A DNA stretch of 64,000 nucleotides, from contig CAVSEP010000004.1 of the NCBI GenBank assembly GCA_963726995.1, forward strand, positions 333,381-397,380, read 5' to 3'. This document shows, piece by piece, positions 1,886-20,090 of this stretch (position 1 is its first letter; every line of letters begins with the position of its first letter). The position numbers and the translations under genes are program-made. The DNA is from an uncultured Pseudomonadota bacterium (GTDB taxonomy: Bacteria; Pseudomonadota; Gammaproteobacteria; Steroidobacterales; Steroidobacteraceae). The notes under the pieces are model-generated. The model did no database searches, was not told the origin of the DNA, and saw only the letters and a program-made list of their open reading frames with translations.

Positions 1886-3100
1886 TTATCGCACCGCGCC
1901 TGGCACCTGAGTCACTGCGACGCGCGCGTTATCACGCAGGGCATCGCTCGGATAGACGACCACGCGGTCACCCTCATTGAGTCCGGACAGCACTTCGGCA
2001 TCGCGGTCATTGCGATGGCCGACGCTCACCTGCACCAGGCGTGCGCGGTGCTCCGGGCTGATGAGATACACCTGCCAGCGCTCCCCGGCACGAAACAGCG
2101 CGCCAGTGGGAACCGTCAACGCCTTGTCTGCTCCGTACACCTGGATCTGGGCATCCAGTCGATAGCCTTCACCGAGCGTTTCCCAGTCCTTGCGGGGCGA
2201 GACGATGTCCACCAATACGTTGACGCGTTGCTCCTCGACACCCAGTGCTGACACCTTAGTAAAGCCCCAGGGTTCGACGCGCCGCACACGTCCGTTCAAC
2301 GGCGCGGGACCGCCCCAATTGATGAGCCGGACTGAAGCGCCCGCGACCACTGGAGGAGCCTCGGTGGTCAGTAGTTCGATCAAGACCTCCAAATTGAGGG
2401 GCTCCCCTAATTCAAGCAGTGGTGTACCGACGCTTACCGTTCCCGCGCTCTTTTGCTGCACTCGCAAGACGCGCCCGGCGACCGGCGCAATCACCAGCCA
2501 CACCGCACCGCTGTCCGCGGCGGGGGCCCGGGCGCGTGCCAGGGCCGCCACCGCGATGTCGATCTCGTGCAGCGCGACGTGCGCGTCCGCCCGCGAAGTC
2601 TCCAGCTCCTGGGTGGCTATGGCCAGTGCCAGTTCATCGGCCTCGAGCTTGGACACCGCAATCAGATGGCTGGTGGCGAGCTGGCGGCTGCGTTCGGCGT
2701 CACGCCGGGCCTGCGTCACGGCAACCGCGCTACGCGCGACGCGTGCATCTGCAGCTTCCTTGGCGGCGCGCGCCGCCTCTACGCGACGGCGCAGTTCCAG
2801 CTCGGTGCGATTGTCGAGCAGCGCCGGTAACACCGGATGTAAACGAGCGAGCAGGGTGCCGCTCGCCACATCATCTCCCTCTCGCAGCGTGATCCGCTCA
2901 AGTTCACCGTTGAGTGGCGCCGTCACTGCGTAGTGATCCCGGATCCGGGTCTTCGCCTGTTCGTCGACAGTCTGTTCAAACGGGCCGCGCCGCACCACTG
3001 CGCTCTCCACGCTGATCGGTGCGGGAACGAGCGCCCAGGCGATCAAGGCGCCCAGCAGGAGCAGGGCCAGACCGATCCATACCAATTGACGGCGACTCAT
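1886..3100 (-). CDS. HlyD/MacA-type periplasmic adaptor (membrane fusion protein)
   Basis: N-terminal TM segment (LVWIGLALLLLGALIAWALV), a long Ala/Arg/Glu coiled-coil middle and beta-barrel-like ends. It sits 3 nt downstream of the FtsX permease gene. Confidence 0.85.
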   Translation of the reverse strand: MSRRQLVWIGLALLLLGALIAWALVPAPISVESAVVRRGPFEQTVDEQAKTRIRDHYAVTAPLNGELERITLREGDDVASGTLLARLHPVLPALLDNRTELELRRRVEAARAAKEAADARVARSAVAVTQARRDAERSRQLATSHLIAVSKLEADELALAIATQELETSRADAHVALHEIDIAVAALARARAPAADSGAVWLVIAPVAGRVLRVQQKSAGTVSVGTPLLELGEPLNLEVLIELLTTEAPPVVAGASVRLINWGGPAPLNGRVRRVEPWGFTKVSALGVEEQRVNVLVDIVSPRKDWETLGEGYRLDAQIQVYGADKALTVPTGALFRAGERWQVYLISPEHRARLVQVSVGHRNDRDAEVLSGLNEGDRVVVYPSDALRDNARVAVTQVPGAVR

Positions 3101-3103
3101 GCG

Positions 3104-5464
3104 TTACTCCCGCGTCTTCAGGGCGCTGACCAGATCCAGGGCATCGATCCGGCGCCTCACAATCAGCGCACTCAACAGTCCGGAGGCCAGGATCGCGACG
3201 ATCGCGATGGCATAGGTCTTTGGCGCAATGATCACCGGAATGCGAAAGGTATCGCTGTGCATGGCATCGGTCAGAAACAATGCGAGTCCGTAGCCCAGCC
3301 AAAGCCCGAGCGGAATCCCCACCGCCACTTCCAGCGCGAGTTCCCCGAGCAGAAAGCTGGAGACTTCGCCGCGCCTGAATCCCAGCACCCGTAGGCTTGC
3401 GAGTTCCCAGGCACGCTCCGCGAGGGCAATGCGCGCGCTGTTGTAGACGACGCCCACGGCAATGGTTGCGGCGAAGATGGTAAAGATGGAGGTGAATACC
3501 AGGACATTGCGCGCGGAAGTTTCGCGGAAGCTCTGCAGCGAATTGGTCTTGATCGCAATCGTGGCGATCCCCGGGGTCTGCTTAATACGCGAAAAGAGCG
3601 CCTGGCTCTGTCTGGGATCCAGCCGGATATCCATTGCCGAGATGGCATCGGCCTCCCCCATGAGGCGATTGAGGGCGGTGCGATTCATGTACCCCACCAG
3701 GGCGAAGAGATCCTTGACCACCCCTTCCACTCGAACGTCGCTCTGGATGCGGCTTCCCTCCAGCGCCTCGACACGCACGAAGTCGCCCGCCCGAACGTTC
3801 AGTCGCTCCGCCAGGCGACTGGATAACAGGATTCCGGTCGATGGGATCTGCACCGGCCGACCTGCCTCATCCAGGGTCCGCCGCAGCGCCGAACCGGCGT
3901 TCAACCCCAAAATGGCCGTCCGAAAGACATGGGGGCCAGCGCGCAGCTGCACGGCGACACTGCGGTAGGGTTCGGCCTGCATGACACCCGGTAAGCGCTC
4001 GATCTCGTAGCGCGTGGCCGCCATGCGCGGGTTCACCAGTGCGACCACGGCGTCGCTGCGCTCCACGGCATTGAATTGAATATCGACCATGTAGTTGATC
4101 GCATCCCACCAGAATGTTCCTGAGACGATCAGCGCCACGGAGGCGGCGATGCCAACGGCGGCCAGGAGCGAGCGCACGGGCCGCCGCTCGAGGTTGCGCA
4201 GAACCATGCGTGCGGACATCGGTAGCCAGCCTGCCACGCCCAGCCGCTCCAGCAGCAGGCGTCGATACCGGGGTGGTGAGGGCGGCCGCATCGCCTGGGC
4301 CGGAGAGAGCCGCACGACGTTGCGAATGGCGAGCAGCGCCCCGCCGACCGCCGCCAGCAAGGTGACTCCTGCAGCGATGGCGACCAGCGCCGGCTCCAGA
4401 CGAAACGGCGCCTCAGGGAAGTGGAAGAAGGCGCTGTACATTCCGGTCATATATCGGCCGAACCAGGCGCCGACGCCGACGCCCAGCAACAGGCCGCACA
4501 GCACCACGATGGCGACAAACTGCAGGTAGTGCACGACGATCGCGCCGTTGGCGTACCCGAGGGCCTTGAGGGCGGCGATCTGCTCGCGCTGGACCGCGAT
4601 TTGCCGGCCGAGCACTACGTTGAGCAGGAATGCCGCCACCCAGATGAAGATCGCCGGCATCACCGTCCCGAGCACCCGCTGCTGGTTCATTTCCTGGGTG
4701 ACGATCTTGTGAGAGATCTGATCGCGCCGCGCGTAGGCGCCGCGTCCCCCAAAGGGTCGCAACAGCACATCGAGAGTGGCAAGTACGTCGGGCTCGGAGG
4801 CGGCCGGTGAGAGGCGCACACTCACGTGATTGAACGCATCCTTCAGGTCAAACGCACTCGCGAGGCGCTCCTCGTCCACCCAGAACACCCCGAGTCCCTT
4901 GGGATCTGGAAAGGCGCCGCCCTGCGAGGGATTGATGTATTCCGGGGAGAGGCCGATGCCGACGATGGTGAGCGACTCACGTTTGCCGTTCAGAAGGACC
5001 GAAACGGTATCCCCCGGTCTCAACTGCCGCGCAGCCGCGAAGCCTTCATCGACCAGGGCTTCCAAGCCTGCCGCGCGCTCAATCATACGCCCGCGCCGGA
5101 TATGAAGGCGGTTGAGGCGCGGTCCATCGCCCGGAGGCGTGCCCACCAAGCGGGCAATCAAAGGTTCCGCCACGCCCGCGACCATCAATTGGCTCGACGC
5201 CTCCACGTTGGCTTCCGCTTCATCCACGCCGGGAATGTCAGCGATCTGCCGCAGGAGCGACTCCGGGGCGCGCTTGAGGTCGACGAATACGTGCGCGAAG
5301 CGCGCCGTCTCATAGAATGTATCGCGTGCCCGTTGCAGCGCATGGTAGGTGCCCAGACTGCCGAAGAATCCACCGGTAGCGGAAGCGACCACTAACGCAA
5401 TGGTGAGCACCTGACCCTTCATGGCCAGCAGGTCGCGTCCGAGCTTGCGTTGCAGCATGCTCAC
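3104..5464 (-). CDS. duplicated FtsX/MacB-family ABC transporter permease (two FtsX modules, 786 aa)
   Basis: Two repeats of TM1, a large extracytoplasmic domain and three TMs. The conserved FtsX segments (ALKALGY..., [11 protein letters not shown]...) each occur once per half. ATGA overlap with the upstream ATPase gene. Confidence 0.9.
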
Positions 5465-6189
5465 CAGGTGAGCTCCGCCGGGCGCACCTTGGCGGCGTTG
5501 CGCTCTTCGGAGGCGATCCTGCCGTCCATCAGATGCAAGACCCGATCAGCCATGCGTCCGATCACAACATTGTGCGTGATCACGACCGTCGTGGTCCCGA
5601 GTTCCGCATTGATGCGCACGATTGCCTCGAGCACCAGCCGCCCGGTCTCGTGATCAAGCGCACCGGTGGGCTCATCACAAAGCAAGAGTTCGGGGCGCTT
5701 GACGATCGCGCGCGCAATGGCCACGCGCTGCTGTTCGCCGCCGGAGAGTTGAGAGGGAAAGTGATCGAGTCGGGAAGACAGGCCGACCCAATCGAGCGCC
5801 TCCTCAGGACGCATTGGTGAGACAGCGATCTCCGTCACCAGCGCGACGTTCTCGCGCACTGTGAGGCTTGGGATCAGGTTATAGAACTGAAACACGAAAC
5901 CGACATGATCGCGCCGGTACCGGGTGAGCTCCGCTTCCGATGCGTGGCTCAAGTCGTGATCGCGCCACACCGCGCTGCCACGAGTCGGCGTGTCGAGTCC
6001 GCCGAGGATGTTGAGCAGGGTGGACTTCCCACTTCCGGAGGGGCCCAAGAGCACCACAAACTCCCCCCGATCAATGTCGAGGTCAACACCCGTCAGGGCA
6101 TGCACGACGACCTCGCCCATTACGTAGTCTTTGGCGAGGCCGCGGGCGGTCAGGACCCGCCGGGGTTCAGATGGAAGGATGGCATTCAC
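5461..6189 (-). CDS. ABC transporter ATP-binding protein (MacB/LolD-like)
   Basis: Walker [10 protein letters not shown], signature [14 protein letters not shown] and Walker [13 protein letters not shown]. The track ORF extends to 6264. An in-frame GTG at 6189 has a GGAG about 10 nt upstream and looks more likely. Confidence 0.9.
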
Positions 6190-6316
6190 CGATACTGAAC
6201 TCCGGCCGAACAGTCTTCTTCGATGCCGCAGCCGACATCGAGGACGAATAATTGAGGAGAGCACTTGATCATGACGCGTCGCGTGCCGGCGGATAGAACA
6301 TCCGGATCCCTAAAGC

Positions 6317-6562
6317 CTACTTGCCCATGGGCGCCTCCGCAGGAGGTCCCTTCATCAATTCAGAGCGACATTCTGTGAAAGGCTTGTCAGAGCGCAGACA
6401 CGTGGCCATCCGGTCGCGCCGTTCGGCCATTTTTGCGCGAAGATCCTTGGAGAGCTCAGGCGCTGACGGCGGCGGCGCTGCCTGCGCAAGGGCGAAGCTT
6501 GACATTATGCTTGAGGCGGCTGCTCCCCAGACAAACCCACAGGGCGGCTGTCGTGCAGACAT
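6317..6562 (-). CDS. small putative periplasmic protein
   Basis: 81-aa ORF with a signal-like segment (AAASSIMSSFALAQA) and a charged mature part with 2 Cys. Same strand as the ABC ATPase and 52 nt upstream of it. Confidence 0.4.
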   Translation of the reverse strand: MSARQPPCGFVWGAAASSIMSSFALAQAAPPPSAPELSKDLRAKMAERRDRMATCLRSDKPFTECRSELMKGPPAEAPMGK

Positions 6563-6762
6563 CTTTCACTTACTCCCATTGCGGAACGGATTCCTCCGAT
6601 CAAGAATATCGGCCCGAACTAGACCGGCGTCTGTACGGATACTTACTTACGAGCTGATAAACATGCCGGCATGCCATTGGTGCCTCCTGACCGATGCGCC
6701 AGACACACGTAGATCCGCTCTCAGTGGACACCCGTGCGACAACCTTCGCGACCTCCAGGCAC

Positions 6763-7647
6763 TTAAAGGTGGTTGGAAGCCCTTAAGGCCTCGGCAAGCA
6801 GCGAGGTCACGGTGATGGCGTTACTGGGATGCGCCAGCGTGTCGGTGGAGACGATCCGCGCCGCTGCCGCCGACGTTGTGGCAAACGCGTCCCCTCCGAA
6901 GATCGCGTGCACCACCACGCAGATAGGGGCGGGAAAACCCTGTTTGCGTAATGCGTCGCTGGCGGCGATCAGGGTACGTCCGGAAGAGGCGATATCATCA
7001 ATGAGGACTGGCTGGCGTCCGCTATAATGTGCAAGGCGCGGGGCCGCGATCTCGACGGCCCGATCATCCCGCCGCTGCTTCGCGAGGACCGCGTACGGTG
7101 CGTGGGCCACAGCCGCAATCTCCGCCGCCCATTGCTCGCTTTCGGCGTCAGGGCCAATGATCAGCGGCTTGGCCACCTCTCGTGCGATCCATTCGCCGAT
7201 CAGAGGCGCCGCATGCAGCACGACACAAGGAATGTCATAGAGTTCGTTCAAATGTGCGAAACGATGGAGATGCGGATCAACCGTCACTAGACGATCCACG
7301 GTTGAGGAAATCAGACGCGCGAACGTGCGCGACGTGATCGCCTCGCCAACGCGAAAGCGAGCGTCCTGGCGCATATAGCCCAAATAAGGCGCCACGAGGG
7401 TGACTTCTGCGGCGCCCAAATCCCTGGCAGCGTCAGCCACAAAGGCAAGTGTCAGAAAATGCTGGTCGGCGTTCGGGCAGACTATGTCGACGGGCCGACC
7501 CTTCGGGTCGGCGGCGATCCGTACGTAGCGTTCGGCGTCTGGAAAGCGCCGAAACTCTAGCACGCCAAGTTCGAAGCCTCCCGCGACGGCCAATTTGGCC
7601 GAGAAGACTTCGCTTCCGGGAAGCGGTAGAAGCAGTCGCAAGGTCAC
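6763..7647 (-). CDS. ribose-phosphate pyrophosphokinase (Prs) family protein, divergent
   Basis: Prs-like layout: FPDAERYVRI, VAPYLGYMRQDARF (compare PY.aYaRQDR), VTVDPHLH, and the PRPP-binding loop VLIDDIASSGRTL. ATGA overlap with the upstream gene. Confidence 0.85.
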   Translation of the reverse strand: MTLRLLLPLPGSEVFSAKLAVAGGFELGVLEFRRFPDAERYVRIAADPKGRPVDIVCPNADQHFLTLAFVADAARDLGAAEVTLVAPYLGYMRQDARFRVGEAITSRTFARLISSTVDRLVTVDPHLHRFAHLNELYDIPCVVLHAAPLIGEWIAREVAKPLIIGPDAESEQWAAEIAAVAHAPYAVLAKQRRDDRAVEIAAPRLAHYSGRQPVLIDDIASSGRTLIAASDALRKQGFPAPICVVVHAIFGGDAFATTSAAAARIVSTDTLAHPSNAITVTSLLAEALRASNHL

Positions 7648-9164
7648 GACTCCAGGCTCAGCATGTCGGGATTGGCGGCGGCGTAGTCCAGCGCGTAGGC
7701 CAGTTCACCAGGGGCCTCTGCGTGGACAGTCAATAGAGGATCACCTATTGCGACCTCGTCTCCCAACCGGACATGCATTTCGATTCCAGCCACTTTGTCA
7801 TCGGGGGCGCCGGCGAGCTTGGCGAGCCGCGACAGGGTACGGTTGTTCATGGTCATCACACGGCCGGAACGGGTCGCCAAGAGCGGCCGGTTGACGGTGG
7901 AACGCGGCGGCTCGCGCAGACCGCCCTGGGCTTCGCAGATCCGCTGGAATTTCGCCCAGGCTCGGCCGTCAGCCAGCGTTTGCTCGGCAAGCCGCGTGCC
8001 CGCGCCGATGGTGCACCGCCCCGCGAGCTCAAGCGCCGCGCCTGCGAGCAGGCAGGCCCGGCGGCGTAAATCCTCTGGGGCGTCCGGCGCGCCTCGCAGT
8101 ACGGCCAGAACGTCGCGCGCCTCCAGGGCCGGGCCGATTCCGCGCCCCACTGGCTGACCGCCATCGGTGCGCACGCATCGCACCATGAGGCCGCACGACG
8201 CCGCCACATTGGTCAGGGCCTCAGCAATGGCGTCAGCATCTTCGTGTGACCGGACCTTCGCCGTCGTACCGACCGGAATGTCGAGCACCACGTGGGTAGA
8301 TCCGGCGGCGATCTTCTTTGATAGCACCGAGGCGACAAGCTGACCTTCCGTGTCGATGTCCAGCACCCTTTCGACCCGGATTAGCACGTCGTCCGCGGGG
8401 CTCAGCCGCACGGCTCCGCCCCACGCGAGACAACCGCCTTCCTGTTCTACCACGCGGCGCATGGTCGGGAGATCTAGGTCGACGGTAGTCAGCGTTTCCA
8501 TGGTGTCAGCCGTGCCGGCCGGCGAGGTGATGGCACGGGAGGAGGTCTTCGGGATAACCAGCCCGTTCGCCGCCACGATGGCCACGATGATTGGAGTGGT
8601 GCGGTTCCCTGGCAGCCCGCCGACGGAATGCTTGTCGGTCACGACTGGCGAATCCCACGTCAGGTGCTCTCCTGCCCGCACCATGGCGCGGGTGAGATGG
8701 AGCACCTCGTCCCTATCCAGGGGCAAAGCCGAGCATGCCGTGAGGAAAGCAGATAGGTGGACATCGGTGTAGCGGCCCGCGGCGACATCGACGATGATCT
8801 CACGCATGGCGGCCTCATCGAGCCGCGTGCCGTACACTCGCCGGCGAACGCTGGACATCGATACGAGAGCCGCCGAGTGTCGCACTTGGATCCGGTCCCC
8901 ATCCGCGACCCCAAGTCTTGCCCACGCCGCCTCCGAGAGGCCCGCCTCATGGACCTGCAAGAGATCGCTGCCGGTGATCTGGTAAAGGGTCGCGGTCACC
9001 TCTCGACCATGGGCCATCAGCAGCACCTGTGAGCGCGGCCCGTGCCCCTCCGACTTGCAGACCGGGCTGTCTTCGCGCATCAGCACGATGGCGTCGTGTT
9101 GCGACAGCAGACCAAGTCGACGGGCGGTCAAGGTGGGCAGAGCCGACTGTTGACCGTTGGTCAC
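7644..9164 (-). CDS. thymidine phosphorylase family protein of the long (about 500 aa) AMP-phosphorylase-like type
   Basis: Motifs DKHSVGGLPGNRTTPIIVAIVAANG and KTSSRAITSPAGTADTMETL, plus an extra N-terminal domain of about 90 aa. The track start is 9176. An in-frame GTG at 9164 forms a GTGA overlap with the MBL gene stop. Confidence 0.85.
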   Translation of the reverse strand: MTNGQQSALPTLTARRLGLLSQHDAIVLMREDSPVCKSEGHGPRSQVLLMAHGREVTATLYQITGSDLLQVHEAGLSEAAWARLGVADGDRIQVRHSAALVSMSSVRRRVYGTRLDEAAMREIIVDVAAGRYTDVHLSAFLTACSALPLDRDEVLHLTRAMVRAGEHLTWDSPVVTDKHSVGGLPGNRTTPIIVAIVAANGLVIPKTSSRAITSPAGTADTMETLTTVDLDLPTMRRVVEQEGGCLAWGGAVRLSPADDVLIRVERVLDIDTEGQLVASVLSKKIAAGSTHVVLDIPVGTTAKVRSHEDADAIAEALTNVAASCGLMVRCVRTDGGQPVGRGIGPALEARDVLAVLRGAPDAPEDLRRRACLLAGAALELAGRCTIGAGTRLAEQTLADGRAWAKFQRICEAQGGLREPPRSTVNRPLLATRSGRVMTMNNRTLSRLAKLAGAPDDKVAGIEMHVRLGDEVAIGDPLLTVHAEAPGELAYALDYAAANPDMLSLES

Positions 9165-10549
9165 GATAGGACCCACTCGTCGCCTTCAGCAGGAACCTCA
9201 CAGTCCCAACCGAGTTCCTTCTCAATCCGTTCGTGCAGCGCAGCCGAGGCGCGTCCCTCACCGTGCACAATGAAGGTCTTCTTTGGCGGGCGCCGAAAGC
9301 CGCTAAGCCAACGCAGAATTTCGTTGGCATCGGCGTGAGCAGACAGCATCGATAGGGTTTCGATCTGGGCTCGCACGGGCACCCAGCCCCCGTGAATCTT
9401 TATTTCGCGCGCGCCATTCAGCAGCGCGTCCCCGCGGGTGCCGGCCGCTTGGTATCCAGCGAATAGAAGGGTGTTCTTAGGATCAGGACCGTAGGTCTTG
9501 ATGTGGTGCAATACGCGTCCCCCGGTGGCCATGCCGCTGGCCGAAATGATGACTTTCGGCATCTCGTTTTGGCTCAGTGCCTTGGATTCCTCCACGCCCT
9601 GCACATAGGTCGCCGAAGCCATGGCCGCTTCACATACGTCCGGAGACAGCCGATGATCCAGCGGATGCCGCTTGAGCATGCCGCTCGCATTGATCGCCAT
9701 CGGGCTGTCCAGATAGATCGGCGTGAGTGGCAATCGTCCCGCGACTTTCAGCTGCCAGACCAGATACAGAAGCTCCTGCGCACGCCCGACGGCGAACGCC
9801 GGGATGATCACCGTTCCGCCGCGCGCCGCGGTGCGACTTATAACCTCTAGCAAGGCGTCGGCCGGCGCGAGCGCCGGATGCAGACGATCCCCATAGGTCG
9901 ACTCAACCACTAGATAGTCCGCTTGGGCCACCGGTGCCGGATCATGCATCAATGAGTCGTCGTAGCGACCGAGGTCGCCGGAGAAGACGATGGTCTGGCC
10001 GCCCCAACGCAACTCAGCTATGGCAGCGCCCAGTATGTGGCCTGCGCAGTGAAAGACTAGATTGGCATCGTGCCCGAGTTCTGACGGCTGCCTGAACTCC
10101 AGTGCCGTGAATTGTCGGAGGGCGCGAAGGGCGTCCTGCTTGCCGTAAAGCGGCAACGCCGGCTTGTGCTTCGAAAAGCCATGGCGATTGGCGAACTCGG
10201 CGTCACCTTCTTGAATCTTGGCGCTGTCGAGCAACAGGAGCTCACAAAGGTCCGCCGTGGCGGCCGAGCAGACAATCCGACCCCCGAAACCTTCGCGCAC
10301 CAGCTTCGGGAGATAACCGGAGTGGTCAAGGTGCGCATGGGTCAGAACCACCGTATCGATAGTTGCCGGATCGACTGGAAAGGCGCTCCAGTTCTTCAGC
10401 CGCAACATCTTCAGGCCCTGGAATAGTCCACAGTCGACAAGAATGCTGCGGCCACCCTCCCGCAGCAGATGCCTCGAACCGGTGACGGTGCCGACCCCGC
10501 CAAGAAACGTGAGACTTACCTTAGGCATGCCACTCCCGGTCGTCTCCAA
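9161..10549 (-). CDS. metallo-beta-lactamase fold / beta-CASP RNA-metabolising hydrolase
   Basis: HxHxDH motif (THAHLDHSG), a beta-CASP-type middle region and a C-terminal RNA-specificity-like domain (SAHAD...). The true start may be the MPKVSLTFLGG methionine at 10528. Confidence 0.85.
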   Translation of the reverse strand: METTGSGMPKVSLTFLGGVGTVTGSRHLLREGGRSILVDCGLFQGLKMLRLKNWSAFPVDPATIDTVVLTHAHLDHSGYLPKLVREGFGGRIVCSAATADLCELLLLDSAKIQEGDAEFANRHGFSKHKPALPLYGKQDALRALRQFTALEFRQPSELGHDANLVFHCAGHILGAAIAELRWGGQTIVFSGDLGRYDDSLMHDPAPVAQADYLVVESTYGDRLHPALAPADALLEVISRTAARGGTVIIPAFAVGRAQELLYLVWQLKVAGRLPLTPIYLDSPMAINASGMLKRHPLDHRLSPDVCEAAMASATYVQGVEESKALSQNEMPKVIISASGMATGGRVLHHIKTYGPDPKNTLLFAGYQAAGTRGDALLNGAREIKIHGGWVPVRAQIETLSMLSAHADANEILRWLSGFRRPPKKTFIVHGEGRASAALHERIEKELGWDCEVPAEGDEWVLS

Positions 10550-10719
10550 CTTCCGCGCTTGGCACCAATGGCTTCATTGGTCCTTGACCGACCCCATAAC
10601 GTAGGCGAGCGGATCGACATCGTTGCGTTGCTGACTGGCTCGCGCGGCATAAAGAGCAGTCAAGCGGGAGGTTGTGGATGCATTCATTTGCGGACCAGGA
10701 TAGAAGGTACCCACTCCTC

Positions 10720-12006
10720 TTAGCTGCCAAATACCAATGGCAAAAGCGCAACGCCAGCCAAGCCCGCGACGACGCTGAGCAGAAGCGGCGCGGCGGCGGA
10801 CCAGCCCGCCCGCCCGCGGGCGATTCCTAAAGCAAGGCCTGCCTTAACGAGGGTGTTGGCGAGGATTGGCGCAGCAATTACATAGCCTGCGGTGAGCTTG
10901 GTGAGGCTTCCCGGCGGCAAACCTCTCATGGTGATGATAGCCGCGTCCACGTCCAGCATGCCTGAAATACCGAGCACGGTCGCCAGGCCGGCGTTGCCGA
11001 AGGTCTGCAAAGCCCAACGGCCGGCCAGGGAGATGACCATGACGAGTAGGGCCAAAAGGAGCGCCGGAACCAGGTCAAAGGGGTTGCGCACCGACGGGGC
11101 TTCCGCGTGTCCGACGGCAGTTTTGCGCCGGCGTAGAGCCCATGCGACGTAAGCGCCGCCAACCAGCGCGGCCGGCGCTGCCACCACAGCCAGGGCGGGC
11201 AGTGCGATGGGGGCGAGCGCCGCCACCAGGATCAGGACCCGGGTGAACATTATCGTCGAGGCGAGGGCAATCCCCGCCACGAGCGCCGGCAGGTCCGCGT
11301 CGCCCCTTCGGATGCGCGCGCTGAGCGCGGCGGTCACGGCCGTGGAAGAGACGACGGCGCCAGCTGCAGCGGTGGCCAGCACGCCATTGGCCGAGCCCAG
11401 TCGCTTGCTCGCCGCGTAGCCCAGAAGCGAGAGTCCCGAGACCAAAACCACGACCATCCAGATCTGGCGCGGATTCCATGCGTTCAACGGGCCAAGGCCC
11501 CGATCCGGAAGCAGCGGCAGGACTGCAAACGCGATCAACCCAAAGCGCGCAATGGCCTGCAACTCCGGCTCGCTAAGGCGTCCAAGCCAAGCGTGCAAGC
11601 GCTGGCGTTGGGCGAGTACAAGGGTCGTGACTCCAGCCAGCACACTGGCCAGTACCAGGTTCCCGGCTGCCGCAAGCACGCCCACTCCGAGGGTAATGAC
11701 GCCGACCACGGTCGTCGTCGCGCTAAAATCGCCCGCAGTTGCAGCCCGAGCATAGCCGATGAGCAAGGCCCCGCCCGCAATGAGCAGGACCACCACGCCC
11801 ATCAAAGAGGAAACTTGGGCACTCACTTCGCCGGCGATCCCGCCCGCGAGCCCCAGCAGGGCAAACGTCCTGATCCCTGCGACGCGCGAGCGGTCGGCGT
11901 CAAGCCGATGCGACCAACCCCTTTCGATCCCGATCAGAAGCCCCAGAACGAACGCCAGGGCGAGCCCGGCGTGGGGTAGCATCGGAGCAAGACTATCGGC
12001 CGCCAC
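10720..12006 (-). CDS. MgtC/SapB family plus DUF4010 integral membrane protein
   Basis: N-terminal MgtC motif (LAFVLGLLIGIERGW) followed by about 10 hydrophobic helices, as in MgtC-DUF4010 fusions. Confidence 0.8.
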   Translation of the reverse strand: MAADSLAPMLPHAGLALAFVLGLLIGIERGWSHRLDADRSRVAGIRTFALLGLAGGIAGEVSAQVSSLMGVVVLLIAGGALLIGYARAATAGDFSATTTVVGVITLGVGVLAAAGNLVLASVLAGVTTLVLAQRQRLHAWLGRLSEPELQAIARFGLIAFAVLPLLPDRGLGPLNAWNPRQIWMVVVLVSGLSLLGYAASKRLGSANGVLATAAAGAVVSSTAVTAALSARIRRGDADLPALVAGIALASTIMFTRVLILVAALAPIALPALAVVAAPAALVGGAYVAWALRRRKTAVGHAEAPSVRNPFDLVPALLLALLVMVISLAGRWALQTFGNAGLATVLGISGMLDVDAAIITMRGLPPGSLTKLTAGYVIAAPILANTLVKAGLALGIARGRAGWSAAAPLLLSVVAGLAGVALLPLVFGS

Positions 12007-12319
12007 CGCACACTCTCTTCACATAGCCAACGTTATTACTTGGATCGCCCGTGCTCTGCGGGGAGTGGCGGCCCACGCCCATCGCAGGCCGTCCGTCAAT
12101 ATACCTGGAGTCGGCCCTGGCGGTTGTGTCGGGCTGGTAGGTCCGTTCGCGAATCCGACGATGACGATCATTGTCATATGGGCCGAGGCGCGGAGCGAGC
12201 AGCAGAACACGGGCCGTTCCGAGCCGGAAGCCGATCGCAAAGACGATGACCGCGTAAGCGACTCCGGCCTTCGCGGTCGACGCAAACAGTTGGCCCATAC
12301 GTTCCGTCATCGGCGGCAT
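11993..12319 (-). pseudogene. probable truncated remnant of a small membrane-protein gene
   Basis: The first 45 aa or so (MGQLFASTAKAGVAYAVIVFAIGFRLGTARVLLLAPRLG) look like the N-terminus of a small two- to four-TM protein family. After this the sequence turns hydrophilic and unrelated, and neither alternative frame restores hydrophobic helices. Confidence 0.25.
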
Positions 12320-12375
12320 CCTTGATGAGGCCTTCCTTGTTCAAATGCAGCAATCTACACGTTCCAGACGATTAA

Positions 12376-12704
12376 CTATGAATTTGTAGTATAGGGACCT
12401 CGTTCGACTCCCACCCCAGCCTTCAGAATCGAAGTACCTGTCCTCAGGAATCGGGGGAGGCTACGTACGTTCGACGGAATAGACACGTGATCGACGAGCG
12501 CCTGGCCAAGCACAAGATTCCACGGCGCGTCGAGTACTCCGAGATGAACTTCAAATGACCGGCTAATTCTTGCAGCAGTCAACGGCAGCATGGTCAGGAA
12601 ATCCGCGCTCTCGGCACTCATCGCACCTCCGTTCTGCTGCAACGTGCTGCGCAGACCGGCGCCGCATCGATCCACTCGTCGGTATCCACCAGAAACACGA
12701 TCAG
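12376..12704 (-). pseudogene. decayed PIN-domain (VapC/FitB-like) toxin gene
   Basis: A PIN-like N-terminus (L)IVFLVDTDEWIDAAPV starts at the antitoxin stop (CTGATC/GTG at 12704-12696) but hits a stop after about 22 codons. A C-terminal-like segment (NLVLGQALVDHVSIPSNVRSLPRF) continues in a different frame to 12376. Confidence 0.35.
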
Positions 12705-12886
12705 CCTCGGCGATCGACTTGCTCTTTGGCAAAGTCCTTGTCGCGGCCGACGTTCGGCATAGAAGCCGGTACATCAGCCAGGGCTCGTCGCCGGGGGCCT
12801 TGAAGCGCAGACTGAAGAACTTCCCGATGTTCCTGCTCAGCGCTGCGGTTGTGCTTTGCTGCGCGCTGCCGCAAGTTAGGTTTCAT
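12701..12886 (-). pseudogene. 5'-truncated FitA/VapB-like ribbon-helix-helix antitoxin gene
   Basis: LRQRAAKHNRSAEQEHREVLQSAL...ASMPNVGRDKDFAKEQ matches the RHH antitoxin pattern. The N-terminal beta-strand (TIRNL-type) is missing, and the reading frame runs into the 3' end of the FtsX gene (12876). Confidence 0.5.
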
Positions 12887-14066
12887 GCAGTGCATTGGCG
12901 ATGCTGGCACGGGCGGCGCGAATCGCCGGAAAGGAGCCGCCCAGGAGGCCCAGCGTACAGGCCAAGCCGACAGCAATTGCGATCAGGGACGGGGTGATGT
13001 CGAGCGCGTAGACCAGTTGTGAGTCGAATAGCGCGCCGCCCAGAGTGCTGATCTCCAGGCCATTGAAGGCTGCAAAGGCGATGGCAACTCCGATGGCGGC
13101 GCCGACCAGGGCGAGCAGCAGCGCCTCGCTCAATATTGATGCGGCCACGGCCGTGGCGGAAAAGCCGATCGCGCGCAGCGTGGCGATTTCGACGCTGCGG
13201 GCGGCCACGGCCGAGTGCATGGCATTCTGGGCGCTGAAGAATGCGCCGATGGCCATGATGGAGCCGATGGCATAGGTCACCAGCCGCAGCATCCGGTTGA
13301 TGGAAGCGGCGGCGCTGGCCAGATATTCGGGTTCCGATCGCACCACCGCCGACAGGGTCGGCTGGGCCGCGAGGTTGTTCGCGACGATGCCCAGCGACTG
13401 CGGCGAAGTCAGCATGGCGGATACGGTACGGGCCGCAGCAAACTTGTAGGCCAACATCAAGGTCTTGAGGTCGGCGACCAGCTCCGATTCCCGGGACCCG
13501 TTGCCGCCCGCGAAGCGGCCGACGATGGTCCAGTCGCCTCCCTGCAGGCGCAGCCGATCACCAAGCTCCAATCCCGCGAACTGGTTGCGCGCCGCCGCAC
13601 CCACCAGCAGTTCCTGGGTCCCGGGATGCAGCATCCTGCCGGCGACCAATTTGAGTTCGGGGCGAATGGCGAAATACTGTTCGCCGACTCCACGTAGTGT
13701 GACGTTGACATCGGAGTTGTCGCGCTTGCGGGCGACCGGTGCCTCCACGACCAGTTCCGCGGACACCATTGGCCGATCGCTTGCGTCGCGCCTAATCCCG
13801 GGTGCGTTGCTGATGGCAGCAATATTCTCCAGGGACAGGCTGCTGTCGGATTCATCGGTTGCAGTCCTGGACATCACGATGGCGCGATCGGCGCGGCCAT
13901 CGGCGCTGATCGTGTGCCGGAAGTTGACATACATGGTGAGCACGGCCAGCAGCACCCCGACGACACCGGCAATGCCGACCACGATGACCAGCGAGTTTCC
14001 GAGGCGCCGCGGCAGGCTTCGCAAGCTGAGCGCGGTCACCACCAATAGCTGGGTCGGTACCTTCAT
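12876..14066 (-). CDS. FtsX/MacB-family ABC permease (single module, 4 TM, large periplasmic domain); no ATPase in its operon
   Basis: TM1 (LVIVVGIAGVVGVLLAVLTMYV), an extracytoplasmic domain of about 220 aa, then three TMs with the FtsX core (IATLRAIGFS) and the typical C-terminus PAIRAARASIANALHET. Confidence 0.85.
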   Translation of the reverse strand: MKVPTQLLVVTALSLRSLPRRLGNSLVIVVGIAGVVGVLLAVLTMYVNFRHTISADGRADRAIVMSRTATDESDSSLSLENIAAISNAPGIRRDASDRPMVSAELVVEAPVARKRDNSDVNVTLRGVGEQYFAIRPELKLVAGRMLHPGTQELLVGAAARNQFAGLELGDRLRLQGGDWTIVGRFAGGNGSRESELVADLKTLMLAYKFAAARTVSAMLTSPQSLGIVANNLAAQPTLSAVVRSEPEYLASAAASINRMLRLVTYAIGSIMAIGAFFSAQNAMHSAVAARSVEIATLRAIGFSATAVAASILSEALLLALVGAAIGVAIAFAAFNGLEISTLGGALFDSQLVYALDITPSLIAIAVGLACTLGLLGGSFPAIRAARASIANALHET

Positions 14067-14070
14067 GGCC

Positions 14071-15213
14071 TCACCGTCTGCGCAGCGAGATTACGATGGA
14101 CATCCGTGCCAGCTTCGCGGCTGGCAGCGCGCACCCCAGCAAGGCGAGCAAGGCGGCGCAGGTCACGCCGCCGGCCACCACGGCGGGCGACACGAATATG
14201 GTGCCGACATCTTCCCGCGCCAGGGGCGCGAGGACATAGGCCAGGGCCAATCCCAGCAGGGCGGGCGGCAGGCACAGGCACAGCGCCTCGGCAAACGCCA
14301 GGGCCAGGATTCCCCGGCCGCTGAATCCCAGGGTCTTCAGGACCGCGAACTCGGGGAGTCGCTGATCCAGGGATTGCCGCAGGGTGTTGCCCGTCACGAA
14401 GGCCAGCGTGAACATCACCGCCACCATGATGGCGTCGGTGAAGAGGGCCACATCGCCCATCTGCTTGGCCTGGTTCTCGGCACGCTCCTGCATCGAGCGG
14501 GTGTGGGTCTCGTGGGAGGAGTTGGCAAAGATCCGGTCGATGGCCGCACCGGTGGCGATTGCCTTGGTGGGATCGGCAATGCGTACGTAGAAGATTTCCG
14601 CACTATCGCGATTCGCGGCGCGGTAGCCGTTCAAATACTCGTAATTGATGATCGCGAAATAGCTGTTGGCGCCGGGGGTGGTGAAGGTGCCGACGATCCT
14701 AAAGGTCCAGATCCCGTTGCCGTCGGTCTTCAGGATATCCGACTGCAAGGGGACGGTATCGCCGACCTTCCACCCATACTGCTTCAGCAACAGCTGCGTC
14801 GCCAGCATGCCGTTGCGGGTGGTGCGCATTGCCGCCAGGCTCCCCGGGGACGCAACGATGGCCGGCAGGACATCGAAGAAGACATCCGGAAAAGTGCCGA
14901 GCGCCGCGAGGTAGTTTCCGGGATCGGCGCCGCGGGCGTTGCCCGTGAAATAGGCGCGTGGCGCAACTTCCCTGATGCCCGGAATGCGTCGGATCTCGTC
15001 CATGGCGGCAATCGGCATGGGTGCCCCGCCACGAACGCGGGTATTGACCACCAGGGATTCCCGATGGGCATTGGCGATCGCCCGGGTAAATCCCGCATTG
15101 ACTCCCTGCAGCAGACCGAACAGTAAGAATGCGATGACCACGGAGAGTCCGGTGAATACGGTCCGCGCGGGCCTTCGCCACAGACCGGCCCACACTAACG
15201 GCAGGAACTTCAT
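14071..15213 (-). CDS. FtsX/MacB-family ABC permease (single module, 4 TM); no ATPase in its operon
   Basis: MKFLPLVWAGLWRRPARTVFTGLSVVIAFLLFGLL start (ATGA overlap with the kinase stop). FtsX core FAVLKTLGFS and C-terminal PAAKLARMSIVISLRRR. Confidence 0.85.
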   Translation of the reverse strand: MKFLPLVWAGLWRRPARTVFTGLSVVIAFLLFGLLQGVNAGFTRAIANAHRESLVVNTRVRGGAPMPIAAMDEIRRIPGIREVAPRAYFTGNARGADPGNYLAALGTFPDVFFDVLPAIVASPGSLAAMRTTRNGMLATQLLLKQYGWKVGDTVPLQSDILKTDGNGIWTFRIVGTFTTPGANSYFAIINYEYLNGYRAANRDSAEIFYVRIADPTKAIATGAAIDRIFANSSHETHTRSMQERAENQAKQMGDVALFTDAIMVAVMFTLAFVTGNTLRQSLDQRLPEFAVLKTLGFSGRGILALAFAEALCLCLPPALLGLALAYVLAPLAREDVGTIFVSPAVVAGGVTCAALLALLGCALPAAKLARMSIVISLRRR

Positions 15214-16589
15214 GGCAGGGCCGGCAGGGCCTGCGGAAATCTCAGGCTGAAGACACAACCGCGGCCGGTCGCCGAGCGAACCGAGATCGAGCCGCGATTC
15301 AGCTGCACCAGCTGCCGCGAGACACTCAGGCCCACGCCGGTGCCGTTGCGCTTGGTGGTGAAGAACGGGACGAAGATACTGTCGAGATGCTCCGGCGGTA
15401 TGCCGCCGCCGTTGTCGATCACCTGCACCTGGATTTCGTTCTGGGTGCTATGTGCGGCACGTACCACGATGCGTGGCTCAGCCGCTGTCTCGAGCGCCTC
15501 GATGGCATTGCGCAGCAGATTGATCAGCACCTGTTCGATCTGTCCGGCGTCCACGCTGATGCCCAACGGGTCCCCCGCGCATTGGATCTCCAGCGAAATG
15601 CCGCGCGCGCGCAGATCCTGGGACAGCAGCACGCGTACCCGCTCAAGCAGCGAGCGAACCTCGACAAACGCGAATGAGGCTTGCGGCAACTTGGAAAAGC
15701 CGCGATAGGCACGCACGAAATCCAGCAGGCCGCGACTGCGGGTGTGGATGGCGGTCACGCTTCGCAGCATGTCGCTTTGCTGTTGCGGCGACAGGGCGCG
15801 CGCCGCGGGTGTCGGGGCGGCCTCATCAATCATCGTCTCGCGCACCAGGCCGCTCAAGGAAATGATCGGCGTCACTGAGTTCATGATCTCATGCGTCAGG
15901 ACGCGAATGAGTTTCTGCCAGGAATCGGTTTCCTGCCGGTCGAGCTCCTGGCGGATATTCTGGAAGGACACCAGCTTGTAGCTGCAGCCCAGGAGTTCGA
16001 AGGTGGTCGTGTACAGCAGCAACTGCAGGTTGTCGTCGTCCCGCTGCACCGCCAGCAAAGTGCGCTCGCCATCGGTGGATTTGCGCAGCATCTCCGGCAG
16101 GCGCTCATCGATACGCGCGAATGTCTGCCAGCTGTTCAGGTAGGGCAGGCGAAAGAGCTCCCGGGCGGGCTTGTTCATCATCTTGACGTAGCCATGCTCA
16201 TCCAGACAGCACAGGGCCACGCTGACATGTTCGACGACGGCTTCCAGGTATTGCAGGTTGGCGGCCTTCTGCAGGTTGAGCCGCCGGAACTCCTCGCTCA
16301 GGAAGTGATAGGCGGATTGCAGTTCGGTGAACGTCGCCCCCTTGTCCGGCAACGTTATCGGCGTCGAATAGTCGTGATGCGCCACGAAGCTCAGGAAATT
16401 GGAGAAATCCCGGACCGTGCGCTCGACATAACGGATGAGCTCGGCGGCGCTGACGGCAATCAGCGCGAGGCACGCCAGGGGAGTCGCCAGCCAGCTGGTG
16501 TTGACGATGCCCCAGACCAGGATCAGGCACAGCGCGATCAGCAGCAGCACCCGCAGCAGAACGTTGACGCGAAAGTTATTGAAGCTCAT
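15210..16589 (-). CDS. sensor histidine kinase with two N-terminal TMs and almost no periplasmic loop (intramembrane-type), PAS-like linker, HisKA and HATPase domains
   Basis: TM1 and TM2 are separated only by NTSW. H-box LTHEIMNSVTPI, N-box LLRNAIEA, G1 VIDNGGGI and G2 GTGVGLSVS. Confidence 0.85.
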   Translation of the reverse strand: MSFNNFRVNVLLRVLLLIALCLILVWGIVNTSWLATPLACLALIAVSAAELIRYVERTVRDFSNFLSFVAHHDYSTPITLPDKGATFTELQSAYHFLSEEFRRLNLQKAANLQYLEAVVEHVSVALCCLDEHGYVKMMNKPARELFRLPYLNSWQTFARIDERLPEMLRKSTDGERTLLAVQRDDDNLQLLLYTTTFELLGCSYKLVSFQNIRQELDRQETDSWQKLIRVLTHEIMNSVTPIISLSGLVRETMIDEAAPTPAARALSPQQQSDMLRSVTAIHTRSRGLLDFVRAYRGFSKLPQASFAFVEVRSLLERVRVLLSQDLRARGISLEIQCAGDPLGISVDAGQIEQVLINLLRNAIEALETAAEPRIVVRAAHSTQNEIQVQVIDNGGGIPPEHLDSIFVPFFTTKRNGTGVGLSVSRQLVQLNRGSISVRSATGRGCVFSLRFPQALPALP

Positions 16590-17943
16590 AGCGCGTCATC
16601 TTGCGGTACAGGGTGGTGCGGCTCAGTCCCAGGGACAGCGCGGCCTTGCTCAGGTTTCCCTGATGCAGGGCGATGGCCTTCTGGATGGCCTGCTTTTCCA
16701 AGGCCTCGAGATTCAAGGTCGCAGGTTCCGGTACATTGGGGTGCGCGAACGGCAGATCATCCAGATGCAGCGGGCCGCGCTCATGCATGATGACCAGGCG
16801 TTCGATGACATGCCGCAGCTCACGCACGTTGCCCGGCCAGTGATATTGCTTGAGCCGGCGAACCGTCGCCGCGTCGAATCCCGGTTCGGGCTTGTGGTAC
16901 TTGCGCGCGAAGACGCGGGCGAAGTGTGTGGCGATCGCCGGGATGTCATCGGCGCGCTCGCGCAGCGCCGGCACCCGGATCTCGATGGTGTTGATGCGGT
17001 AGAGCAGGTCCTGGCGGAACTGCGCGCCGGCGCGCAGCTCCGCGGCGGAAAGATTGGTGGCGCAGATCAGGCGCGCATCGATCTTTATGGGACGGTCGGA
17101 GCCAACGCGGCTGACCGTCATGCTCTCCAGGGCGCCCAGCAACTTGGCCTGCATGGCGAGACTGAGATTGCCGATCTCATCCAGAAACAGCGTGCCGCCC
17201 CGGGCAACCTCGAAGCGCCCGGCACGATCCTCGCGCGCATCGGTAAAGGCGCCGCGCCGATGGCCGAACAGCTCGGACTCGAACAGGTTCTCGGATATCG
17301 CCCCGAGATCCACGCTGACGAACACCTGCCCCTGGCGCAGTGACTGCCGGTGAATCTCCCTGGCCACGAGTTCCTTGCCCGTGCCGTTCTCACCCAGAAT
17401 CAGCACATTGGCTTCGGTGCGGGCGACCTTGGCGATTCTGGAGAGTACCTGTCGCAGCGCGTCTGAGTCGCCGATGATCTGATCCACATCGGGCGAGGGG
17501 AATTCGTTCAACGTGCGCTGCCGGCTTTGCAGGCTGGCGACTTCCCGATCGGCCCGGGCGAGCCGCGCGACGGTGGAGACGGTGGCCACCAGCTTGGCGT
17601 TGTCCCAGGGCTTCACGACGAAATCCGCCGCGCCCTCGCGCATGGCGTTCACGGCCGTCTCGATGCCACCGTAGGCGGTCATCAGGATGATCTTGGTGTC
17701 CGGGGCAATGGCCTGCACGGTTTTCAGCCAGTCGATGCCTTCGCGGCCGGAGGTCGCCCCGACCGAGAAATTCATGTCGAGCAGGATCGCATCGAAGGCT
17801 CGCTGGGACAGCAGTGATTTGATCTGGCCGGGGTCGGAGGCCGTGACCACTGTCTGAAAATGACCTTTCAGAACCAGCTCGGCCGCGAGCAGCACTTCCG
17901 AATCATCGTCGACAATCAGGATGTCGCAGGGCTGCAGTTTCAT
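16576..17943 (-). CDS. sigma54-dependent response regulator (NtrC/AtoC family enhancer-binding protein)
   Basis: Receiver domain (ILIVDDD...LLDMNF), AAA+ domain (GENGTGKE, variant sigma54-contact loop GAFTDA, LFLDEIG) and a C-terminal Fis-type HTH (LGLSRTTLYRKM). The start is taken at MKLQPCDILIVDDD rather than the longer track ORF. Confidence 0.9.
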   Translation of the reverse strand: MKLQPCDILIVDDDSEVLLAAELVLKGHFQTVVTASDPGQIKSLLSQRAFDAILLDMNFSVGATSGREGIDWLKTVQAIAPDTKIILMTAYGGIETAVNAMREGAADFVVKPWDNAKLVATVSTVARLARADREVASLQSRQRTLNEFPSPDVDQIIGDSDALRQVLSRIAKVARTEANVLILGENGTGKELVAREIHRQSLRQGQVFVSVDLGAISENLFESELFGHRRGAFTDAREDRAGRFEVARGGTLFLDEIGNLSLAMQAKLLGALESMTVSRVGSDRPIKIDARLICATNLSAAELRAGAQFRQDLLYRINTIEIRVPALRERADDIPAIATHFARVFARKYHKPEPGFDAATVRRLKQYHWPGNVRELRHVIERLVIMHERGPLHLDDLPFAHPNVPEPATLNLEALEKQAIQKAIALHQGNLSKAALSLGLSRTTLYRKMTRYELQ

Positions 17944-17973
17944 GGCTCGGAGACTGTCCAGGTTGTACCGTAG

Positions 17974-17992
17974 TGGAACACAAACTGTTTCA
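17974..17992. promoter_or_regulatory. imperfect inverted repeat TGGAACA-N5-TGTTTCA, candidate enhancer (UAS) site
   Basis: 6/7 matching arms. It lies about 100 bp upstream of the sigma54-like promoter element in the divergent intergenic region. GGAAC recurs at 17996-18000. Confidence 0.25.
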
Positions 17993-18085
17993 TTTCGGAA
18001 CGATCGAGTCAGGCCGTGGCCTGCAGGCCGCATCACCCGGGTGTGCTAACTCATTGAATCAGTGAGTTTCTTCGCCTGGTGTGGC

Positions 18086-18102
18086 CCTGGCATGCATCTT
18101 GA
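18086..18102 (+). promoter_or_regulatory. sigma54 (-24/-12)-like promoter element CTGGCATGCATCTTGAT
   Basis: Matches YTGGCACGrNNNTTGCW at 15/17 positions with correct GG/TTG spacing. The -12 element reads TTGA instead of TTGC. It points into the HlyD-ABC operon next to a sigma54 activator gene. Confidence 0.35.
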
Positions 18103-18105
18103 TCT

Positions 18106-19407: not shown

Positions 19408-20087
19408 TCATTGAAACTGAGAACCTGAAGAAGATCTATCGCACTGAAGTGGTGGAGACCACGGCCGTGAACGATATCAACTTCTCCTTGAGTCCCGGAC
19501 AGTTCGTTTCGGTGATGGGCCCCTCCGGATGCGGCAAATCCACGCTGCTGCACGTGCTGGGCCTGATCGACAGTCCGAGCGGCGGGCGCTACCGCTTCAT
19601 GGGCGAGGATGTCTCGGGATACCCGGAGCGGCGGCGCGCCAAGATCCGCAAAGCCCACATCGGCTTCGTGTTTCAGAGCTTCAACCTCATCGATGAACTG
19701 ACGGTGTTTGAGAACGTCGAATTGCCACTGATCTACGCGGGTGTGGCCGCCCACGATCGCAAGAGCCGCGTCGAGGGGGTGCTGGAGAAGATGGACATCG
19801 GGCACCGTCGCGGGCACTTCCCGGCGCAGCTGTCTGGCGGCCAGCAGCAGCGCGTGGCGGTCGCAAGGGCCCTGGTCAACCGGCCCAATGTGATCTTTGC
19901 CGATGAGCCGACCGGCAACCTGGATTCGGAGCACGGCGAGGAGGTCATGAAGATGCTGCTCAAGCTCAATGAGGAAGGCACCACCATCCTGATGGTGACC
20001 CATTCGGCGACCAATGCGGCCTACAGCGGCCGGATAGTCAGCCTGCTGGACGGCAAGATCGTTTCCGACAAGTCGGCCGGGCGCTAG
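19404..20087 (+). CDS. ABC transporter ATP-binding protein (MacB/LolD-like)
   Basis: Walker A GPSGCGKST, Q-loop, signature LSGGQQQRVAVARAL and Walker B VIFADEPTGNLD. The start is the ATG at 19404, not the long track ORF. Confidence 0.9.
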   Translation: MIIETENLKKIYRTEVVETTAVNDINFSLSPGQFVSVMGPSGCGKSTLLHVLGLIDSPSGGRYRFMGEDVSGYPERRRAKIRKAHIGFVFQSFNLIDELTVFENVELPLIYAGVAAHDRKSRVEGVLEKMDIGHRRGHFPAQLSGGQQQRVAVARALVNRPNVIFADEPTGNLDSEHGEEVMKMLLKLNEEGTTILMVTHSATNAAYSGRIVSLLDGKIVSDKSAGR

Positions 20088-20090
20088 GCC

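Follow-up and report, generated by a model that had tools for sequence, protein, structure and literature searches.

A mobile bacterial cassette coupling an AMP-phosphorylase-type protein to a Prs paralogue: a candidate route for recycling the ribose phosphate of RNA

Archaeal AMP phosphorylase catalyzes the opening reaction of the AMP (pentose bisphosphate) pathway, where it acts with a ribose-1,5-bisphosphate (R15P) isomerase and a type III RuBisCO. PhnN, known from Escherichia coli, is a ribose-1,5-bisphosphokinase that forms phosphoribosyl pyrophosphate (PRPP). In Bradyrhizobium diazoefficiens, a protein of the thymidine phosphorylase (TP) family, a ribose-phosphate diphosphokinase (Prs) and a metallo-beta-lactamase (MBL)-fold hydrolase are encoded in a single operon, bll3117-bll3116-bll3115, whose products belong to the 62-protein core microoxic proteome of this organism (PMC6515984). 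Here we analyze a cassette of three related genes in an uncultured member of the Steroidobacteraceae (Gammaproteobacteria; assembly GCA_963726995.1), located in a 64,000-nucleotide stretch of contig CAVSEP010000004.1 (positions 333,381 to 397,380), hereafter the window. On the reverse strand of the window, genes follow one another for a beta-CASP MBL-fold hydrolase that is probably a ribonuclease (RNase; 9161..10528), for an AMP-phosphorylase-type protein of the TP superfamily (7644..9164) and for a Prs-like ribose-phosphate diphosphokinase paralogue (6763..7647). The trio is real, widespread and mobile, and its conserved core is the phosphorylase/Prs-like pair. We give a probability of roughly 55% to the reading that this mobile cassette recycles the ribose phosphate of RNA and nucleoside monophosphates (NMPs) under oxygen or energy limitation, via R15P towards PRPP. 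The original prediction for this locus had named the three products as a beta-CASP enzyme with an RNA-type C-terminus, a phosphorylase closer to archaeal AMP phosphorylase than to the bacterial thymidine phosphorylase DeoA, and a divergent Prs homologue, and all three assignments hold.

The phosphorylase (506 aa) carries the Pfam domains Glycos_trans_3N, Glycos_transf_3 and PYNP_C. It passes the NCBIfam models NF003338 (PRK04350 subfamily; 663.6 bits, cut-off 434) and TIGR02645 (577.4 bits, cut-off 434.6), and stays under the cut-off, given in brackets, of every model for DeoA and pyrimidine nucleoside phosphorylases: 145.2 bits for TIGR02643 (570.7), 196.5 for NF004490 (269), 190.2 for TIGR02644 (409) and 143.2 for NF004747 (559). 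Its best solved relative is the AMP phosphorylase of Thermococcus kodakarensis (4GA5, 333.5 bits), with true TPs at about 127 bits. The architecture is that of the archaeal enzymes (4GA4, 4GA5 and 4GA6; TIGR03327), including an extra N-terminal domain of about 85 residues before the TP core, in whose columns DeoA-type proteins have nothing but gaps; residues 16-502 align with positions 2-487 of TIGR03327. The two motifs to which the original prediction had pointed, DKHSVGGLPGNRTT and KTSSRAITSPAGTADTME, are both found in the translation. Among columns that reach 90% or higher conservation within the proteobacterial phosphorylase clade, 33 proved common to the proteobacterial enzymes and the AMP phosphorylases of archaea and the candidate phyla radiation (CPR) while differing from DeoA, the stretches HSxGGxPGN(K/R)T and PKTSSRAITSxAGTAD being among them, and a single conserved column was shifted (Y136 versus L). 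A tree of 41 proteobacterial copies, 18 relatives from archaea, CPR and other metagenome-assembled genomes (MAGs), and 8 DeoA proteins unites the long-form enzymes in one clade (support of 100 in the SH-like approximate likelihood-ratio test, SH-aLRT), distant from the DeoA outgroup, and recovers the proteobacterial phosphorylases as monophyletic (98), beside Thermococcus-type and CPR-type groups. Because the 33 AMP-phosphorylase-specific columns are kept with one shift, the catalytic core of the protein is by sequence that of an NMP phosphorylase; we classify it as AMP-phosphorylase type, not DeoA, and predict it to be an NMP phosphorylase.

The distribution of the cassette was followed in two samples. 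Among 401 evenly drawn Pseudomonadota genomes, the phosphorylase scored above cut-off in 46 (at 49 places), the Prs-like protein in 42 and both in 41, and at 38 of the 49 phosphorylase places the Prs-like gene lies directly downstream on the same strand. A beta-CASP gene adjoins about 16 of these 49 places, in two gene orders: directly upstream of the phosphorylase, with a product 50-70% identical to that of the window, in about 12 places, and directly after the Prs-like gene, with about 40% identity, in four, which is the Bradyrhizobium-type order. As the two orders belong to two clades with such different identities, two beta-CASP lineages have joined the pair independently. The second sample comprised the 80 loci of named species nearest to the window's phosphorylase, each taken with 5 kb on either side; a Prs-like gene was present in 69 of them and a beta-CASP gene in 55. 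The window's own order, beta-CASP-phosphorylase-Prs-like, is the commonest there (21 loci), next to phosphorylase-Prs-like (20 loci) and Prs-like-phosphoketolase-beta-CASP-phosphorylase (9 loci). The expectation that the trio would be conserved together is thus borne out for the phosphorylase and Prs-like genes, the beta-CASP gene being a frequent, not an obligate, companion. The pairing is a feature of the bacterial enzyme, as at 44 AMP phosphorylase loci from archaea and CPR no Prs-like gene lay beside the phosphorylase. Strains of Caulobacter, Bradyrhizobium, Pseudomonas putida, Ralstonia, Bordetella and Legionella are among the carriers, as are MAGs of Myxococcota, Gemmatimonadales and Bacteroidota. 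Apparent fusions of beta-CASP and phosphorylase in single open reading frames (ORFs) of 590-1063 aa at four high-GC loci (L035, L042, L044 and L045) were rejected after Blast comparison as artefacts of upstream open frames, which leaves the PhnN fusions described below as the only genuine ones.

Several observations speak for mobility. The canonical Prs of the host finds its closest relatives in MAGs of Steroidobacteraceae, with identities of up to 84%, while the window's phosphorylase is 86-89% identical to Caulobacter proteins; a homologue of the latter occurs in none of 24 genomes of the same family (13 of the same genus) and in one of 16 of the same order. Caulobacter vibrioides carries an island flanked by insertion sequences (IS) in which the order is beta-CASP, phosphorylase, Prs-like, Usp, P-type ATPase, IS, phosphoketolase and alcohol dehydrogenase. 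Only window positions 6809-10528 align with this island (76.5% over 3729 nt), which is exactly the three genes, so the cassette itself is the unit of transfer. These comparisons indicate that the cassette has been transferred horizontally across classes.

The Prs-like protein (294 aa) consists of the Pfam domains Pribosyltran_N and Pribosyltran and passes the NCBIfam model NF005537 (PRK07199; 373.3 bits, cut-off 322). It scores 202.9 bits with archaeal PRK00934 versus 123.9 bits with bacterial class I PRK01259, below the latter's cut-off of 297, and its best solved relative is the class III Prs of Methanocaldococcus jannaschii (1U9Y, 147 bits). With that enzyme (1U9Y/1U9Z) it shares a similar length, all catalytic motifs and the absence of the class I regulatory loop; unlike it, the window's protein belongs to a bacterial subfamily of its own, PRK07199, with conserved DPHLHR, GPDxESxQW and KxRxgDr, whose members invariably occur in addition to a class I Prs and are tied to the phosphorylase. 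The motifs FPDxE, RQD, DPH, KxR and DDxxSxGxT are all present and at least 90% conserved across 28 family members. Profile scores and structural relative therefore agree on a divergent Prs homologue of PRK07199 type that is class-III-like. It is not the organism's only Prs, a possibility that the original prediction had raised against itself, since a canonical class I enzyme is encoded elsewhere in the genome (C7:948434-949363, 383.5 bits).

The expected product of the phosphorylase, R15P, lacks its archaeal consumers in this organism. Searches of the host genome, which is 91% complete, found no RuBisCO and no PhnN, and its sole IF-2B homologue reaches 152 bits with the R15P isomerase model TIGR00511 (cut-off 314) and is read as MtnA because it sits beside a methylthioadenosine (MTA) phosphorylase gene; the absence of RuBisCO and isomerase that had been noted for the locus thus extends to this genome assembly. 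No R15P isomerase scored above the TIGR00511 cut-off in any of the 46 carrier genomes. A clue to the fate of R15P comes from the five carrier genomes of the first sample that have no Prs-like gene, two of which (G220 and G352) encode PhnN and the phosphorylase as a single-ORF fusion directly after nadC (L046, G220 C37:29050-31089; L047, G352 C77:230283-232031). The PhnN parts score 183.7 and 168.8 bits (cut-off 156), nadC 330.8 bits (cut-off 198.4), and the phosphorylase parts belong to the PRK04350 family (588 and 543 bits) and branch inside the proteobacterial clade of the tree. Clustered at 90% identity, the fusion family amounts to 196 clusters and is spread over alpha- and betaproteobacteria, including Bosea, Rhodoplanes, Pandoraea, Ottowia and others. 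Like PhnN and these fusions, the cassette would couple an R15P producer to a PRPP-forming enzyme, but the partner is a Prs-family protein in the window and the P-loop kinase PhnN in the fusions, and nadC is a neighbour of the fusions, not of the window's cassette. As a Rosetta-stone link, the fusion supports the view that R15P is the product of these phosphorylases and is passed on by bacteria to PRPP, and the Prs-like partner thereby becomes a candidate analogue of PhnN; the fusion lends indirect support to a flow from R15P to PRPP in these bacteria. Note also that the fusions come in two architectures, one that includes the N-terminal domain (about 680 aa) and one that lacks it (about 590 aa), and that NCBI product names call them either 'PhnN' or 'thymidine phosphorylase'.

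The beta-CASP protein matches Lactamase_B, Beta-Casp (113.8 bits) and RMMBL (71.7 bits) above the Pfam cut-offs, and contains the HxHxDH motif as HAHLDH and the RNA-type histidine of motif C (SAHAD). Among solved structures, the Thermus thermophilus RNase TTHA0252 matches best (268.7 bits), with Cas14 and archaeal CPSF next. Both the window's protein and TTHA0252 (2DKF/3IEK) consist of three domains in the same layout, with none added, and the operon contexts of the two differ. The gene is thus a probable RNA-type beta-CASP RNase gene. Its ORF at its longest is 9161..10549, from an in-frame TTG at 10549; the true start is likely the ATG at 10528, as the resulting 455 aa are the length of the called Caulobacter homologue and the DNA homology with the Caulobacter cassette begins exactly there. 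The top NCBIfam match, Cas14 of type VII CRISPR systems, aligns over positions 2-426 of 612, i.e., the nuclease core only, at 379 bits (cut-off 800); identity with Cas14 was rejected in view of this score, the lack of CRISPR context and the lack of PADLOC hits.

The original prediction placed the trio in hypoxia- and stress-associated islands of proteobacteria, and this link is confirmed by the Bradyrhizobium operon, the only counterpart with expression data. At 0.5% O2, protein abundance is higher by log2 2.9 for bll3115, 4.4 for bll3116 and 2.1 for bll3117, and transcript abundance is higher 15.4-, 7.7- and 5.1-fold, respectively (PMC6515984). The operon depends on FixK2, with a FixK2 box at -74, and the phosphoketolase/acetate kinase operon bll2518-2517 is likewise under FixK2 (PMC9104804). 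At other loci, genes for Usp, P-type ATPase, phosphoketolase and acetate kinase adjoin the cassette; in the second sample, a P-type ATPase was found at 23 of the 80 loci, phosphoketolase at 22, an ICMT-like protein at 11 and acetate kinase at 10. The Bradyrhizobium operon differs from the window in gene order (TP-Prs-MBL versus MBL-TP-Prs), and the two phosphorylases lie in different subclades; four sampled genomes with the TP-Prs-MBL order (G056, G172, G188 and G236), whose beta-CASP proteins are about 40% identical to the window's, are taken as being of Bradyrhizobium type.

The host genome itself contains clusters typical of anoxic survival. In one of them, at C6:293667-301476, genes for acetate kinase and phosphoketolase are grouped with tandem Usp and with a class II ribonucleotide reductase that seems to contain an intein. 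This cluster resembles the low-oxygen (lxa) locus of Burkholderia; in the paper on that locus, the main text makes no mention of the phosphorylase. A second phosphorylase paralogue, 55% identical and without a Prs-like partner, lies about 270 kb from the window (C4:612654-614186), divergent from a tandem-Usp gene that is followed by a P-type cation ATPase (C4:614558-618048); the tree does not place the two paralogues as sisters. About 10 kb from this second copy, a further pair of MgtC/DUF4010 and beta-CASP genes is present (C4:623890-626208), whose beta-CASP gene changes frame near residue 320 and so falls into two parts, which reflects either a frameshift pseudogene or an assembly indel. Indel errors in the assembly are possible, as trpD at C6:454324-455077 also matches in two frames.

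In the reading that we favour, the beta-CASP enzyme would degrade RNA to 5'-NMPs, as its family suggests; the AMP-phosphorylase-type enzyme, whose active site is nearly identical to that of the archaeal enzyme, would convert NMP and phosphate to free base and R15P; and the dedicated Prs-like enzyme would return the ribose phosphate to the PRPP pool, from which salvage phosphoribosyltransferases could draw for purines, pyrimidines and NAD. For the third step, two options appear to us about equally probable: the Prs-like enzyme might take R15P itself and so be PhnN's functional analogue, or it might act on ribose 5-phosphate (R5P), as a PRPP synthase that lacks the class I allosteric site and works at low energy charge. 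We infer every enzymatic step, and the interpretation originally proposed, in which the Prs-like enzyme turns R15P into PRPP, is partly supported: the idea of R15P running to PRPP gains from the PhnN fusions in genomes without the Prs-like gene, and its assignment to the Prs-like protein does not, as this protein keeps all the motifs of an ordinary R5P diphosphokinase. That conservation weighs against the scheme as a whole, and so do several other points. To our knowledge, no member of the Prs family uses R15P. The substrate of the beta-CASP enzyme is assumed. The phosphorylase reaches 480.2 bits with the AMP phosphorylase equivalog TIGR03327, under its cut-off of 535, and the proteobacterial phosphorylases form a separate branch that is not nested among the archaeal enzymes. 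PhnN was present in all five carriers of the first sample that lack the Prs-like gene versus 4 of the other 41, and in a second, MAG-rich sample it was present in one of seven such genomes versus 4 of 15; this complementary distribution, considered as a test of functional equivalence, did not replicate and was dropped. The FNR/FixK box TTGA-N6-TCAA has no match in the whole 64-kb window, unlike the Bradyrhizobium operon, so low-oxygen control in this organism is extrapolated from Bradyrhizobium only. Finally, the phosphoketolase embedded in 22 of the 80 operons points to catabolism over salvage.

This last observation leads to the main rival, a catabolic, energy-conserving fermentation of RNA and nucleotides, which we consider on balance unlikely. 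Here, NMP and phosphate would again give base and R15P, which the Prs-like enzyme would turn into R5P by the reaction R15P + AMP -> R5P + ADP, or from which R5P would be obtained otherwise; R5P would then enter the pentose phosphates and be turned by phosphoketolase into acetyl phosphate, from which acetate kinase would form ATP. The phosphoketolase gene, within 5 kb, often lies between the Prs-like and beta-CASP genes, as in the four-gene order found nine times, acetate kinase is close by in ten of the 80 loci, the C. vibrioides island adds Usp, P-type ATPase, phosphoketolase and alcohol dehydrogenase to the cassette, the host has its own acetate kinase, phosphoketolase, Usp and class II ribonucleotide reductase cluster, and FixK2 governs bll2518-2517 as well as bll3117-3115. 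The chemistry is conceivable too: in the reverse Prs reaction AMP would attack the phosphorus bound to C1-O, and R15P offers the same centre, so that the conserved Prs residues could stay as they are. However, the proposed phosphotransfer has no known precedent and is thermodynamically uphill under standard conditions, 58 of the 80 operons contain no phosphoketolase, and the PhnN fusions with their nadC neighbours point to PRPP, not to R5P. The narrower proposal that the Prs-like protein is in vivo a ribose-1,5-bisphosphate:AMP phosphotransferase and not a PRPP synthase strikes us as distinctly unlikely; if it were true, the energy of the N-glycosidic bond would be captured as a phosphoanhydride, R5P would be fed to phosphoketolase, and RNA would be an anaerobic source of ATP by an undescribed form of substrate-level phosphorylation.

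A different role for PRPP would follow if the phosphorylase-like enzyme were a PRPP-dependent phosphoribosyltransferase like TrpD, using the PRPP of its private Prs to make an unknown ribonucleotide. TrpD belongs to the same superfamily (trpD matches are weak, 44 bits), and a consumer of PRPP would indeed show strict pairing with a PRPP synthase; but the near-complete retention of the 33 AMP-phosphorylase-specific columns, and the fact that PhnN, the fusion partner in the sister architecture, consumes R15P, the expected product of the phosphorylase, make this very improbable. We find it hardly credible that the cassette is an anti-phage device, in which infection would trigger an RNase and a nucleotide-cleaving enzyme to deplete nucleotides. 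Mobility, patchy distribution and the Cas14 model as top match of the beta-CASP gene would fit such a role, against which stand the low Cas14 score without CRISPR context, the absence of PADLOC hits, neighbours that serve energy and stress metabolism rather than defence, and the oxygen regulation of the Bradyrhizobium counterpart.

About one in nine of the sampled proteobacterial genomes thus carries a predicted NMP phosphorylase of archaeal type locked to a private Prs paralogue. Because no carrier has the archaeal R15P-consuming enzyme, at least one undescribed step in bacterial nucleotide or ribose metabolism is to be expected. In a model rhizobium, few proteins are induced as strongly by low oxygen as those of the cassette, which also travels with genes for anoxic survival; its function is therefore relevant to the persistence of obligate aerobes in nodules, biofilms and sediments when oxygen is lacking.

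As for the layout of the locus, the genes were predicted to be translationally coupled through GTGA and ATGA overlaps; GTGA stop/start overlaps are present at both junctions, between the beta-CASP and phosphorylase genes (9161..9164, minus strand, reading cta tcG TGA cca) and between the phosphorylase and Prs-like genes (7644..7647, minus strand, reading gag tcG TGA cct), and no ATGA overlap exists. The phosphorylase ORF extends to an alternative GTG at 9176 (7644..9176), and the start at GTG 9164 is preferred because homologues are annotated as 506 aa. Scans of positions 5000-13500 for promoters and terminators gave nothing above chance, and an Rfam search of the same interval found no riboswitch. 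The MgtC-family gene described directly upstream is there (10720..12006, same strand), separated from the trio by about 170-190 nt, and encodes an MgtC plus DUF4010 membrane protein (Pfam, 50.7 and 166.9 bits). It lies outside the transferred cassette and shows no alignment with the C. vibrioides island. Such a gene adjoins the cassette at 4 of 42 loci, and at 2 of the 80 in the second sample; it is an occasional accessory, and its adjacency is rare. Together with the flanking ABC, FtsX and HlyD genes, it is local context. These flanking genes form two MacB/DevCBA-like exporter sets (HlyD, FtsX permease and ABC ATPase) that bracket the cassette (window 1886-6264 and 12876-22544), with a sigma-54 two-component pair nearby at 15210-18036, and ABC-FtsX-HlyD sets also adjoin the cassette in genomes G124 and G184, in Hyphomonas jannaschiana and at a few other loci. 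Upstream of the MgtC gene, window 12020-12870 holds few genes and short ORFs, and the short ORF 12701-12976 resembles a fragment of a ribbon-helix-helix antitoxin; this region may represent what is left of a degraded toxin-antitoxin locus, or the scar of an insertion at the island's edge. On the other side, the 500-nt gap between the Prs-like and ABC ATPase genes contains an ORF of 81 aa (6317-6562, minus strand) with a signal-peptide-like N-terminus.

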